A DNA stretch of 50,740 nt, from assembly GCA_002254565.1 (NCBI GenBank), contig NJEG01000030.1, positions 1 to 50,740 of the forward strand, written 5' to 3'. Source of the stretch: Candidatus Altiarchaeales archaeon ex4484_2 (GTDB lineage Archaea > Altiarchaeota > Altiarchaeia > IMC4 > QMZM01). Below, piece after piece: positions 37,472 through 41,410 of the stretch. Under the pieces are notes generated by a model. It made no database searches, had not been told where the DNA came from, and saw only the letters and a list, made by a program, of their open reading frames with translations. The stretch's first letter is position 1; the number at the start of each line of letters is the position of its first letter. Both the position numbers and the translations under genes were made by a program.

Positions 37472-38413
37472 TTATTCCCCAGTTCCGCCTCTCATAGCTA
37501 CGAAATAGACTACCACTATTACAACCACCACACCCACTATTCCCAGAAGCAACATGGTGTTATCGCCCCCTCCAGATGCCTGAGTGGTTGTTGGTGCCTC
37601 AATTGTTGTTGTTGGAGCCTCGGTTGTTGTTGTTGGAGCCTCGGTTGTTGTTGTTGGAGCCTCGGTTGTTGTTGTTGGAGCCTCGGTTGTTGTTGTTGGA
37701 GCCTCGTCGGTTGTTACGGTCGTGGAAACGATTGTGGTAGTTGTTGTTGTTTCACCTGTGAAATCCACAGCTTTTTCTGTAGTCACATAGTCACTTTTCT
37801 CGAACGTTAGTATGTATCTCCCAGCTTCTTCCAAGGTGAAGGTTACTTGACCGTCTTCATCAGTCCAGAGTTTCTCAACCCTGTTCTTCCAGTATTCTGA
37901 ACCAAGGTATACTTGCACCATCACATCCTCTAATGGGTCTTCCCGGTCCCTGTCCTTTACTGTTACCACCACATCTTCTCCTATGATAGTTGAGCTTATG
38001 TCCACATCCATGTAGTGAGTTCTACGGCCTGACTTGGGCACATCTATGTAGTCTACACCAGTATCGTAACCTGTTTTTGTTGCGGTTACCTTGATATGAC
38101 ATCCCTTATCGGCTTTAACACCCTTGAAGACTACTGTATTTATAGTTGCAGGTGGTGCGGCAGCCGTAATCAGTGAGGTGCCATTTGCAGAGTCCACATC
38201 ACAGTATTGTAGCTGGACTGTAACGCCGTTGGAGTCTCCTGCGCTTGCTGTTACTTTAACTGTGACGTCTTCCGCCATCAATCCATCTATTTCATCATCC
38301 TGCCCATCGCTTGAGTTTACTTTCACAGTTAGTGTCTGCGCGGAAACGCTTGTTAATCCTAGAGCGAATATACTCATCAATACTATCCCATAAACCAAAA
38401 CTTTCTTATTCAT
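37472..38413 (-). CDS. Cell-surface glycoprotein with signal peptide, beta-sandwich domains, Thr-rich linker and C-terminal TM
   Basis: MNKK plus hydrophobic leader ending VSA, ATKTGY, TDEDGQV.F, (EAPTTTT)n and a TM followed by basic residue. Confidence 0.8.
   Translation of the reverse strand: MNKKVLVYGIVLMSIFALGLTSVSAQTLTVKVNSSDGQDDEIDGLMAEDVTVKVTASAGDSNGVTVQLQYCDVDSANGTSLITAAAPPATINTVVFKGVKADKGCHIKVTATKTGYDTGVDYIDVPKSGRRTHYMDVDISSTIIGEDVVVTVKDRDREDPLEDVMVQVYLGSEYWKNRVEKLWTDEDGQVTFTLEEAGRYILTFEKSDYVTTEKAVDFTGETTTTTTIVSTTVTTDEAPTTTTEAPTTTTEAPTTTTEAPTTTTEAPTTTIEAPTTTQASGGGDNTMLLLGIVGVVVVIVVVYFVAMRGGTGE
37583..37705 (-). repeat. 21-bp coding tandem repeat (EAPTTTT)
   Basis: GGTTGTTGTTGTTGGAGCCTC four times exactly (37622-37705), plus two degenerate copies. 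Confidence 0.92.
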
Positions 38414-38590: not shown

Positions 38591-39517
38591 TTATTTTTCC
38601 CTGAACCATTTAATGGTTTCCTGAAGTCCAAGATTTAGGTTTGTTGTAGGAGCCCATTTAAGTTCTCTTTCAGCTAATCCACAGTCAAGGCTTATGTTTC
38701 TGACCTCGCCTTTCACCGGTTTATCGTGGACTGCTCGGGTATCTGATTCAGCCAGATCCCTTAGTTTCCCGTAGATTTCATTGACGCTGGTTTCTATGCC
38801 CGTGCCTATGTTGAATATTTTATCCCGGGTTTTCTCTCTTAAGGCCTGAAGATTTGCTTTCGCAACGTCTTTTACGTATACGAAGTCTCTTGTCTGTTCG
38901 CCGTCACCGTAGATGAGGGGGGTTTCCTGATCCAGTATCTTTTGGGTGAATATGGCTACCACCCCCGCTTCTCCAAGCGGGTCTTGCCGTGGTCCGTAGA
39001 CATTGGCGTAGCGAAGGGATGCATAATCTAGATCGTGGAGCTGATGGTACATGCCCAGGTATTTTTCAAAAGCAAGCTTGGAGACCCCGTAGGGGCATAA
39101 CGGCGCCTCAGGTTGGTCTTCTTTCGCCGGCAGGTGTTCGGGTTCCCCGTAGATTGCACCCCCAGTTGAGGCGAAAACAATCTTTTTTATGTCGTATTTC
39201 CTGCAGCATTCCAGTAGGTTTATTGAACCCAGGATGTTGACCCTGGCATCGTGTACCGGGTTTTTCACGGAGTCCCGAACATCTATGTGAGCCGCCTGAT
39301 GCACCACCCAAGAAGGCTTCTCTTTCTCGAAAACATCCCCTAGTTTACTCTGATTACATATATCTACTTTATGGAATTCTGCTTTAGGGTTGACGTACTC
39401 CAAAAAGCCGTGGCTTAGGTCGTCTACTACCGTAACCCCGTAGCCTTGATCTACCAGCAGGTCCACAACATGCGAGCCAATAAAACCCGCCCCACCAGTA
39501 ACCAAAACAGAAACCAT
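38591..39517 (-). CDS. NAD-dependent NDP-sugar epimerase/dehydratase (GalE-like)
   Basis: VTGGAGFIGSH, ASTGGAIYG, YGVSK, RYANVYGPRQ and GDG.QTRDFVYV.D. Confidence 0.93.
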   Translation of the reverse strand: MVSVLVTGGAGFIGSHVVDLLVDQGYGVTVVDDLSHGFLEYVNPKAEFHKVDICNQSKLGDVFEKEKPSWVVHQAAHIDVRDSVKNPVHDARVNILGSINLLECCRKYDIKKIVFASTGGAIYGEPEHLPAKEDQPEAPLCPYGVSKLAFEKYLGMYHQLHDLDYASLRYANVYGPRQDPLGEAGVVAIFTQKILDQETPLIYGDGEQTRDFVYVKDVAKANLQALREKTRDKIFNIGTGIETSVNEIYGKLRDLAESDTRAVHDKPVKGEVRNISLDCGLAERELKWAPTTNLNLGLQETIKWFREK

Positions 39518-39562
39518 ATTAGATAAGAAATGGGAATCATAGGAAATAAAAGCCCTTCTTTT

Positions 39563-40351
39563 TCAGTATCTTTCGAGGTATTTTTGCGCGTATTCCGGTG
39601 CCTTGGTTATTGGTTCAGTGTCTTCTTCCCGGAAGAGGGAGGGCTGTACCTGGTTTGCTAGGCGTTTAAGCTCTTTCTCTCCGAGGTTTTGTAGGCGTTG
39701 GATGATTAATTGCTTGGGTTGGGGTGGAAGATTGTTTGCTGCTAGTATCTCTTTGTTGAATGGGAATTTTTTCTTGAGCATGAACATCAGATCATAGATG
39801 TCTCTGCCCCGTTTTCTATTCAGTAGGGCACATAATTTCTCTGTTATCATTGATGATTCAGTCATCACTGTTGCGGTGTAGTTGTATCCATAGAGGCTTA
39901 GTATGTGTTGTTTTGTCTCAAGATCCCAGTGTGGTTTGTTCACCTCCAGTTTTATCATCATATCCACTCCTCTCTGGTCTGTGATGTTGTATTGTTGCAT
40001 TATCTCGGTGAGGTTTATTTCTGCTGTATATAACGTTTTTCTTTTGGTGTATTGTGTTTCTGTTTTGAATCCTTCCAGTTGCAGGTTTCTTGCTGCTTCT
40101 TCGGTTATGTCTTTGATTTCTTTGTGTGTTAGTTTTTTGGTGTTGAAGTCAAGGTCTTCTGAGAACCGGGGCAGATGGTAGCAGTATCGTAGGGCTGTTC
40201 CTCCCATGAAATATAGTTTTTTCCCTTCTCTTGTTTTGTAGATGCTGTGGAGGATTATGTTTTGGAGGTATTCTCGTATTATTGCCCTGGGTTTGTTTTC
40301 CGGTAGCCCGTGTTCTTTTGCTTCCTGGGTTAGGTATTTGAGGGGCATCAT
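39563..40351 (-). CDS. AbiEii-family nucleotidyltransferase toxin (type IV TA)
   Basis: EYLQ..IL, FMGGTALR....LPRFSEDLDF and EK..A...R..GRDIYDL. Confidence 0.92.
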   Translation of the reverse strand: MMPLKYLTQEAKEHGLPENKPRAIIREYLQNIILHSIYKTREGKKLYFMGGTALRYCYHLPRFSEDLDFNTKKLTHKEIKDITEEAARNLQLEGFKTETQYTKRKTLYTAEINLTEIMQQYNITDQRGVDMMIKLEVNKPHWDLETKQHILSLYGYNYTATVMTESSMITEKLCALLNRKRGRDIYDLMFMLKKKFPFNKEILAANNLPPQPKQLIIQRLQNLGEKELKRLANQVQPSLFREEDTEPITKAPEYAQKYLERY

Positions 40352-40953
40352 TTTTTTAGTATCTGTTTTATTGTCTGGTGGGTTTTTTTGTTTAGTTTTT
40401 TTGCGTAGTTCATGGTTTTTTGGTGGGATATTTTGTTGAGTTGTTTTTTGTTGAATCTTTCTCCTTCATAGTCTTTTTGTCCTTGTCTGTTTCGGTGGTA
40501 GATGAAGTCTGCTAGTGCTTTCTCGGGTTCTGCGATTAGGGTCTTGTATCCCTGGATTTTCATTAGTTTGTATCCTGTGTATGCGTTTTTTTTGATTGTG
40601 TGGTAGGTGAATGTACCGTGTTTGTTTTTGATTGTCCTGGTGGGTTTGGTTGTGGTGGAGGTTGTGTGGGCTGTTTCTTCGGGTATTAGGTTGTAGAATG
40701 ATAGGGCGGTTTCGTGGGATATGTAGGAGGGCTGGTATAGTTTGTTGGCTAGGTAGTAGGCTGGGATGTTTTTTTCTTGGAGTAGGTACATGTTTTTCTT
40801 GATTCGTTGGATGTGTCCTTGTTTTACCCAGTTGTGTAGGTTGTTTTTGATGGTTTTTGGGTTGTTTTGGGGGTATAATGCTTCGATGTCGTATAGTGTG
40901 AATATTTCGAGTTTTTTTTCTTGTAGTTTCCTCTGGAAGCCGGGATAATCCAT
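40348..40953 (-). CDS. AbiEi-family antitoxin
   Basis: N-terminal wHTH, PSYIS.ETALSFY.LIPE and A.PEKAL.D; overlaps the toxin start by 4 nt. Confidence 0.9.
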   Translation of the reverse strand: MDYPGFQRKLQEKKLEIFTLYDIEALYPQNNPKTIKNNLHNWVKQGHIQRIKKNMYLLQEKNIPAYYLANKLYQPSYISHETALSFYNLIPEETAHTTSTTTKPTRTIKNKHGTFTYHTIKKNAYTGYKLMKIQGYKTLIAEPEKALADFIYHRNRQGQKDYEGERFNKKQLNKISHQKTMNYAKKLNKKTHQTIKQILKK

Positions 40954-40989
40954 TTCAGTTAATCATAATATATTAGGACTTACTGAAAT
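40952..40989. promoter_or_regulatory. Inverted repeat over abiEi start (autorepression operator)
   Basis: Arms ATTTCAGTTAATCATAAT and ATTAGGACTTACTGAAAT, 15/18 complementary. AbiEi is known to repress its own promoter through inverted repeats. Confidence 0.7.
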
Positions 40990-41034
40990 AAAAATAGATT
41001 GGTTTTTCCCATCAGAAAACGAAAAAACAAACAA

Positions 41035-41082
41035 ATGCGAGCCAATAAAACCCGCCCCCCCAGTAACCAACACATCCTCCAT
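41035..41082 (-). pseudogene. 5' stub of NDP-sugar epimerase
   Basis: MEDVLVTGGAGFIGSH, after which homology stops. Confidence 0.85.
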
Positions 41083-41287
41083 AGTTTACATCTATGAAGC
41101 ACAAAAATAAATAAAGACGATTTTAACGGGGTGTTGTGTTTTTTGCTTTGAGTTTCTGGGGGGGTTTAACAACGATGAGCTCGTGGCTGTAGGTAGCAGC
41201 CTGAGAACATCAGAGAAGAGCTTGGAGATAGATAGTAAAGAACTAGGCACCTATCCCCGTAATTTTTATTTAATACTCAATAATAAC

Positions 41288-41410
41288 ATGGAACAAAAAC
41301 TTCTGGATATACTCGCATGCCCCAAGTGTAAGGGTGATCTAGAGCTTAAAGGGGATCACCTTATTAAGGCAGGAAGTTGGGATTGTTGGATAATCGGATA
41401 CAAGAGGTGA
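41288..41410 (+). pseudogene. Truncated Trm112-family gene
   Basis: MEQKLLDILACPKCKGDLELKGDHLI, lacking the second CxxC and the YPI.DGIP tail. Confidence 0.7.

Follow-up and report, generated by a model that had tools for sequence, protein, structure and literature searches.

A small AbiE toxin-antitoxin cassette lacking a recombinase, probably inserted into an archaeal epimerase gene with duplication of the 5' end of its target

The sequence analysed here is a stretch of 50,740 nucleotides (nt), hereafter the window, from Candidatus Altiarchaeales archaeon ex4484_2 (contig NJEG01000030.1), which represents the complete contig C13 of a 53-contig, 1.395-Mb assembly that is 83% complete. Its minus strand carries a gene for a sugar epimerase, immediately preceded by abiEi and abiEii, the gene pair of a type IV toxin-antitoxin/abortive-infection system. 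The main conclusion of our analysis, to which we would assign a probability of about 80%, is that a 1.5-kb abiEi-abiEii cassette lacking a recombinase was inserted after codon 16 of this GalE-like epimerase gene and duplicated the first 48 nt of its target, without the use of a dedicated attachment site. The native promoter, together with the first 16 codons, persists ahead of abiEi as a dead stub, and a second copy of these codons, furnished with a 45-nt spacer from the insert side, a TATA-like box and an ATG of its own, keeps the open reading frame (ORF) of the epimerase whole.

Read along the minus strand, the locus comprises, in order, a T-rich promoter-like stretch, the stub ORF, abiEi, abiEii, the 45-nt spacer and an epimerase gene coding for 308 amino acids. 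The first of these, the native epimerase promoter region (41083..41125), now faces the stub and abiEi, and is near-identical in a same-genus genome (G004) and in a metagenome contig (L112), both of which are considered below. The stub copy of the duplication (41035..41082) corresponds to native epimerase codons 1-16 (MEDV...GSH) and opens a 39-codon ORF (41082-40963, with its stop at 40965-40963), which reads MEDVLVTGGAGFIGSH followed by 23 out-of-context residues. It adjoins the left end of the insert (40997..41034), a non-conserved stretch, beyond which lie a conserved palindromic stretch (40952..40996), abiEi (40348..40953) and abiEii (39563..40351), the latter two overlapping by 4 nt. The spacer (39518..39562) extends from the stop of abiEii to the new epimerase ATG and contains a T-rich TATA-like run that is a candidate replacement promoter. 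The intact epimerase gene (38591..39517) begins MVSVLVTGGAGFIGSH, with its MVSV start on the insert side of the duplication, and its first 16 codons (39470..39517) constitute the gene-side copy. T-rich TATA-like runs can be read about 30-40 nt ahead of both ATGs, in keeping with the AT-rich sequence upstream of both starts which the earlier note on this DNA had pointed out.

A repeat search of the window recovers the duplication as a direct repeat of 49 nt (39470-39518 and 41035-41083) that is 88% identical at a spacing of 1565 nt. Its core (39470-39505 and 41035-41070), delimited by the repeat search together with blastn (E about 1e-11), is identical at 35 of 36 positions, and thus the 36-bp repeat from which the earlier note started is borne out. 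Likewise, its view that the pair was inserted without a recombinase of its own is supported by the content of the 1565-nt repeat unit, in which the ORF list and Pfam reveal abiEi and abiEii only, with no integrase, transposase or other mobility gene. The 36-mer occurs at just these two places in the whole assembly. When counted from the ATG, the two copies share 42 of 48 positions in the window and 44 of 48 in L112; those of the window differ at codons 2, 3 and 4 and at one synonymous site in codon 8. The same repeat search detected no inverted repeat pairing the two ends of the insert. The core was also compared with seven orthologous epimerases from other genomes, six with the same amino acid motif and one with a variant of it. 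These share just 21-29 of the 36 nt with the 36-mer, as against 33 of 36 for G004 and 35 of 36 for the stub. Hence, the repeat is better understood as a duplication than as conservation at the level of the protein, an argument already made in the earlier note from the identity at synonymous positions.

The state of the locus prior to insertion can be read from relatives. In a DNA search covering 40 of them, the upstream flank and the epimerase were recovered together on a single contig (C17) of G004 as blast pieces overlapping by 43 nt. Here a single 48-nt copy (MENV...GSH), reading MENVLVTGGAGFIGSH, is continuous with the body of the gene and is preceded by the same promoter stretch and divergent Trm112-like ORF as the stub of the window. 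This is the empty allele, with MEDV...GSH joined directly to the gene body, whose existence had been predicted. In the core, the stub matches G004 at 34 of 36 positions and the gene-side copy at 33 of 36; moreover, the stub agrees with G004 at every site where the two copies of the window differ. Therefore, the stub represents the native promoter and start, whereas the MVSV start and its 45-nt spacer lie on the insert side, which is the Campbell-type geometry, with an element supplying a replacement 5' end, that had originally been proposed. No AbiEii was found in G004, a genome that is 69% complete. G002, a more distant genome, carries the epimerase along with the same gene downstream of it and lacks AbiE within 1.5 kb; the empty state is therefore taken to be ancestral.

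The insertion has also been captured independently. The 2355-nt metagenome contig L112 displays the same order of Trm112-like ORF, stub, abiEi, abiEii and epimerase at 91% nucleotide identity, with a left junction identical to that of the window. Additionally, Logan contigs from four runs bridge both junctions, three of them (X1-X3) deriving from the same strain and the fourth (X4) from a relative that is about 92% identical. As both junctions are bridged in these independent assemblies, the insertion is not an assembly artefact. Nucleotide identity between the window and L112 is uneven along the locus: it amounts to 96-97.5% in the stub, left spacer and abiEi, 92% in abiEii, 78% in the right spacer and 65-82% in the left chromosomal flank. 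Despite the low overall identity of the right spacer, L112 retains its TATA-like run as well as the 16 nt that precede the ATG. The epimerase probably now uses this TATA-like box as its promoter. Variants are also patchily common to the copies across the two lineages (e.g., codon 2 of the L112 stub is that of the gene copy), a pattern in the aligned sequences which suggests occasional gene conversion between the two copies.

The epimerase itself matches PF01370 in Pfam at 1.8e-65, with residues 4-238 covering positions 1-240 of the 240-position profile. Its best NCBIfam match is TIGR01179 (galE; 3.1e-61), under the cut-off of that model. The GxxGxxG (GGAGFIG) and YxxxK (YGVSK) motifs are readable in its translation, and it is 87% identical in amino acid sequence to the gene of G004. 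The predicted product is thus a GalE-like extended short-chain dehydrogenase/reductase sugar epimerase.

AbiEii, the DUF1814 nucleotidyltransferase and predicted toxin of the pair, matches PF08843 at 7e-25 (88.8 bits against a cut-off of 22.5). Inspection of an alignment of six cassette homologues shows that motifs I-IV (GG ... R ... DLD, KLxA..R and RDxxD) are present and invariant, with a spacing between motifs I and II slightly shorter than described. It is 91% identical in amino acid sequence to its counterpart in L112 and free of stops. AbiEi, the putative antitoxin and autorepressor, is matched by NF047376 (TAA_AbiEi; 2.8e-13) over positions 12-162 of 172 with 49.9 bits, below the curated cut-off of 150, along with a weak match to PF13338; it is 98% identical to the L112 protein, and abiEi partners abiEii in every homologous cassette. 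A bicistronic, overlapping abiEi-abiEii arrangement, the DUF1814 motifs I-IV and a palindrome upstream of abiEi are shared with the AbiE type IV system as set out by Dy et al. 2014 (PMC3985639), which also describes AbiEi binding inverted repeats as operators and AbiE stabilising the DNA that carries it. Compared with the AbiE of that account, the version in the window is archaeal, strongly A+C-rich and has an AbiEi under the NCBIfam cut-off. Further, that account places abiE on plasmids and mobile elements and not in a free-standing cassette between long duplications.

The palindromic stretch before abiEi is 84-86% conserved at the nucleotide level in the cassettes of three related genomes (G006, G028 and G037) and visible in those of G043 and L113. 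About 40 nt before the abiEi start, it persists in cassettes whose identity is otherwise just about 65% (the window, L013, L014, L023 and L113). By analogy with the inverted repeats to which AbiEi binds in the account of Dy et al., the palindrome at 40952-40989 is likely to be an AbiEi operator, and the surrounding stretch a candidate abiE promoter. The coding strand of the cassette (39563-40953, minus) has an unusual composition, with A 0.44, C 0.27, G 0.14 and T 0.14; abiEi alone reaches A 0.48 and G 0.10, as compared with A 0.28, C 0.23, G 0.23 and T 0.27 for the genome. This A+C skew is also seen in L112 and is far weaker in the homologues from G006, G028 and G039. No clean deamination signature was found in the cassette, its 84 lineage-specific changes being mixed (G>A 18, C>A 16, T>C 12, A>C 12).

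The broader distribution of the family indicates that the arrangement at the epimerase gene is one instance among several. Relatives of AbiEii are present in 14 of 61 genomes belonging to the class (in this collection, class and phylum have the same extent), in which 15 AbiE loci were recovered; two are cut by contig ends, leaving 13 testable. A flanking direct repeat with a score of at least 40 was detected at five of these 13, as compared with one of 400 random 1.4-kb "inserts" of the window genome, for which the 99th percentile was 29. When only cassettes with AbiEii at least 50% identical are considered, long direct repeats are seen at five of six independent loci, counting the metagenome locus L113. 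What is duplicated differs from case to case. In the window and L112, it is the 5' end of the epimerase gene. In G006, a repeat of 48-49 nt takes in the last 10 codons and stop of a convergent transporter gene together with 17 nt. In G028, 83 nt at 93% identity correspond to the final 27 codons of a gatB-like gene, with the left copy at the end of another, joining contig. In G043, 117 nt extend from the promoter through codon 28 of a flippase-like gene, and in L113 the 69 nt are non-coding. The exception is G039, which has just a 17-nt repeat (16 of 17 identical) at the expected places. Apart from the conserved palindromic stretch before abiEi, the insert ends are unrelated between the instances. 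The duplication target of G043 is single-copy in three relatives (G041, G042 and G044), and G041 also shows the left flank, providing a second empty site. Empty sites were not obtained for G006, whose relative G015 is too diverged and has the flanks on other contigs, nor for G028, whose relative G023 is only 72% identical. A scan of metagenomes for close relatives of the cassette returned two loci, and viral contigs yielded no AbiEii relative above 33% identity.

In the G043 cassette (contig C90), abiEii is additionally separated from the right-hand copy of the duplication by a multicopy repeat some 250 nt long (L023:2377-2637). At least six further copies, 97-100% identical, are found on other G043 contigs and diverged copies in G042; its appearance is that of a small non-autonomous mobile element which entered the cassette after insertion.

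A comparable footprint emerges in distant members of the family. Among the matches listed, 105 AbiE loci of bacteria or viral contigs with at most 38% identity were collected, 77 of them with enough flank. At seven of these 77, flanking repeats scored 50-279, three of the seven being one event seen in related contigs, and six of the seven have a spacing of 1567-1768 nt, i.e., that of the gene pair alone. At a score of at least 40, the corresponding controls gave two of 400 (maximum 41) and, with reversed flanks, one of 77 (maximum 44). The repeat at L109, with a spacing of 2761, may represent paralogous genes. Four distant pairs located between direct repeats of 46-177 nt (L058:1518-3130, L071:2077-4021, L074:2154-3860 and L133:1916-3543) come from Saccharibacteria, Patescibacteria, Bdellovibrionales and one contig of a viral collection; the repeat of L058 corresponds to roughly the final 15 codons of a glycosyltransferase gene.

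The same kind of footprint is also found elsewhere in the window genome. A self-comparison limited to repeats of 28-400 nt within one contig, with an identity of at least 80% and a distance of 0.5-6 kb, returned 20 direct pairs and no inverted ones, and about 10 of the 20 bracket whole genes. These include two MNT-HepT pairs (C29:18352-19443 and C50:7376-8215, with 78-nt and 40-nt repeats), a PIN/VapC gene (C53:16354-17636; 124-nt repeat) and two Schlafen-type genes with repeats of about 103-122 nt; an archaeal ATPase, an ABC-transporter block and two genes of unknown family are bracketed in the same way, the remaining cassettes being situated at C48:15430-18637, C24:10227-11820, C4:4218-7797 and C14:4083-5042. 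For the C53 VapC case, an exact empty site exists in G001:C52 as two pieces overlapping by 124 nt. For the C50 MNT-HepT pair, the search for an empty site found one flank only.

With respect to mechanism, the route we would place first, at slightly under even odds given the insertion itself, is one in which a copy of the cassette in circular or concatemeric form, with a short target-like stretch on it, would recombine once with the chromosome through the recombination machinery of the host, in a Campbell-like fashion. Recombination between the two copies could then release the cassette as a circle again and restore the native gene. Retention could be explained by the pair being both addictive and defensive and leaving its target gene intact, as loss would be punished by the toxin. 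A single crossover is favoured because the copies of the window and of the C53 VapC case differ in their insert-proximal halves (six of eight sites fit in C53), and because five of the six differences between the G028 copies are synonymous.

Several observations pull in the other direction, some of them bearing on the crossover and others on the insertion or its wider pattern. Over the 12 nt after the ATG, the two copies of the window are only 7/12 identical (11/12 in L112), so that the duplication may extend over 36 and not 48 nt, in which case the ATG would come from the end of the insert. Neither a circle junction nor an excised form was found in the Logan contigs of the four runs, a material in which assembly drops rare variants. 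A donor with the right spacer and MVSV start was not found in the 61 genomes of the class, where only the conserved motif part was matched. A test of chimeras against filled-in breaks across 16 repeat pairs was not significant, with 38 of 136 mismatches in the central third (p = 0.2), and the changes unique to the stub copy of G043 are spread over its full length, which is also compatible with drift following a true duplication. Some of the 20 direct pairs of the genome are conserved motifs of adjacent paralogues, such as two glycosyltransferase genes on C42, and comparison of the C29 MNT-HepT locus with G004 shows a larger missing block that is not bounded by the repeat.

Since the global mismatch test is not significant and G043 is compatible with drift, repair of a staggered break by fill-in, or a template switch, is a serious rival to the crossover; as an alternative route to the same insertion, we rate it some way below even odds. 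In its full form, this explanation posits a true target-site duplication, in which incoming DNA without homology enters a very long staggered break, or is joined by a template switch, and fill-in duplicates 36-48 nt. Such a process would readily account for repeats ranging from 17 to 177 nt, insert ends that are unrelated between instances, the sharpness of the repeat in the window with its near-perfect core, the lack of a donor homologue of the spacer in the class, and a gene-side copy in G043 that is relative-like over its whole length with the unique changes confined to the stub. It predicts neither the clustering of differences in the insert-proximal halves of the window and C53 repeats, which is what a single-crossover chimera should show, nor the synonymous bias in G028, which suggests that both copies diverged as working genes. 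It further requires the fortunate presence of an in-frame ATG and a promoter at the end of the insert; on this view, selection would have kept these features. The full form of the explanation strikes us as possible and on the whole unlikely.

The earlier note had also entertained an integrase acting in trans, with the DNA of the Rossmann motif of the epimerase as its attachment site and preferred landing pad, which would render the cassette an integrase-less, att-flanked element of the CIME type. A rebuilt gene end and imperfect repeats are indeed the geometry that integrases make. The motif DNA is also fairly conserved in the community: a depth spike at 39422-39508 is seen among the Logan contigs aligned to the window, and matches of 85-91% were obtained in about ten genomes of the class, the motif DNA being conserved in many organisms of the same metagenomes as well. 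However, related cassettes lie between unrelated repeats at other genes (five of six independent loci, the window among them, have long repeats, each of a different sequence), the 36-mer has no further copy in the genome, the ten repeats of the genome have no core sequence in common, just one PF00589 tyrosine recombinase gene was found in the 83%-complete assembly, and the scan of viral contigs turned up no close relative of the cassette. The landing-pad proposal is accordingly not supported, and the integrase in trans is very improbable. That the stub is what remains of a second epimerase paralogue after its deletion, with the repeat reflecting no more than the conserved GxxGxxG motif, is next to incredible in spite of the C42 glycosyltransferases demonstrating that adjacent paralogues do generate direct repeats in this genome, as the very DNA upstream of the stub is contiguous with the gene body in G004, tblastn at E 1e-3 recovers no further epimerase of this type from the assembly, and the nucleotide match of orthologues with the same motif falls far below the 35/36 seen here.

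Certain classes of mobile DNA were considered and set aside. Terminal inverted repeats, expected of a DNA transposon, insertion sequence or miniature inverted-repeat transposable element, are absent and the duplications vary from 17 to 177 nt; casposon or Cas1-type integration yields duplications of fixed length; and no attC-like sites of an integron cassette are present.

In Campbell-type elements with an integrase, and in their integrase-less, att-flanked derivatives that are mobilised in cis, direct repeats bracket the element, one end of the target gene is rebuilt and the displaced end persists as a stub. The cassette in the window differs from these in having no integrase, in the absence of an att core among the related cassettes or the ten repeats of the genome, and in the widely varying length of the duplications. 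In the single-crossover insertion-duplication used in the laboratory, a circle with a chromosomal fragment integrates to leave the fragment at either end of the insert, and an intact gene results only from a fragment that includes a gene end. Such fragments are hundreds of bases long, whereas a natural cassette would need a piece of 36-117 nt from its next target.

Insertion of restriction-modification genes with a long target duplication was reportedly described by Nobusato et al. in 2000. The closest parallel in the literature is this class as treated by Furuta, Abe and Kobayashi 2010 (PMC2853133), with which the window locus has in common a small cassette without a mobility gene, an imperfect duplication of variable length above 30 bp, a single target in an empty relative to which both copies align, a repeat unique in the genome and an addictive, "selfish" cargo. 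As given in that paper, the class is delimited by an insert below 20 kb, the absence of mobility genes, a duplication above 30 bp and alignment of both copies to one target. The locus agrees with this in its empty relative, duplication length, insert size, lack of a mobility gene and non-multicopy repeat; its cargo is AbiE in place of the restriction-modification genes of the original definition, and the class is invoked here for the mode of insertion. The same paper states the mechanism to be unknown, proposes double-strand breakage and a "virus-like life cycle", and has no archaeal case passing its screen. Relative to what it describes, the cargo here is a toxin-antitoxin system and the host an archaeon, the same cassette family recurs at different targets, and the duplicated piece is the 5' end of a gene equipped with a replacement promoter; double-strand cutting, proposed there as the common cause, is without a counterpart in AbiE. 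Two reviews (PMC2654758 and PMC3874152) cite long target duplication for restriction-modification systems only, and our literature search found no published account of this mode of insertion for toxin-antitoxin cassettes or for archaea. The finding thus extends a known insertion mode to a new cargo, toxin-antitoxin genes, and a new domain of life, the archaea, and its recurrence across the AbiE family and in other toxin-antitoxin and defence cassettes of the genome is an added observation.

Two neighbouring features complete the description of the locus. The divergent Trm112-like small ORF (41183..41410, plus strand; PF03966, 1.9e-5) belongs to the chromosomal flank and serves as a synteny marker, with homologous ORFs in G004 and L112. 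Between it and the epimerase promoter lies a strain-variable indel: at position 41239, the Logan contigs of X1 and X3 have 27 extra bases, those of X2 have small scattered insertions at 41240-41252, and G004 too has extra sequence within this intergenic region. At 37472-38413 on the minus strand, there is a gene for a 313-aa predicted secreted or anchored protein with five to six tandem Thr-rich units of 8 residues, followed by a C-terminal membrane helix. The G004 counterpart lacks this repeat region or has a different one, the tblastn alignment being limited to residues 1-218 and 278-313.

Defence and toxin-antitoxin genes move often, yet many chromosomal ones have no transposase, integrase or phage nearby, and their route of arrival is usually left open. 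The locus described here offers a clean view of one such archaeal event, with the states before and after it, and the long, variable and imperfect target duplication recurs in archaeal AbiE cassettes, in some distant bacterial ones and in other cassettes of the same genome, turning an old observation on restriction-modification genes into a broader, countable pattern. As a tentative generalization, which we consider rather unlikely as it stands, AbiE, MNT-HepT, VapC and Schlafen-type cassettes of archaea and bacteria might be mobile units without a recombinase of their own, which would be excised as circles by host recombination via the long duplication, re-enter by short homology and become fixed by addiction. 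Were this true, it would resemble the "virus-like life cycle" once proposed for restriction-modification genes, and AbiE would offer a tractable example, with members recurring between different duplications of 40-177 nt across distant phyla. The small size of the cassette (1.5 kb plus 48 nt) makes it suited to a bench test of the mechanism. For annotation, the implication is that short "orphan" gene starts or ends beside defence genes are better read as the scars of insertions than as pseudogenes of lost paralogues.

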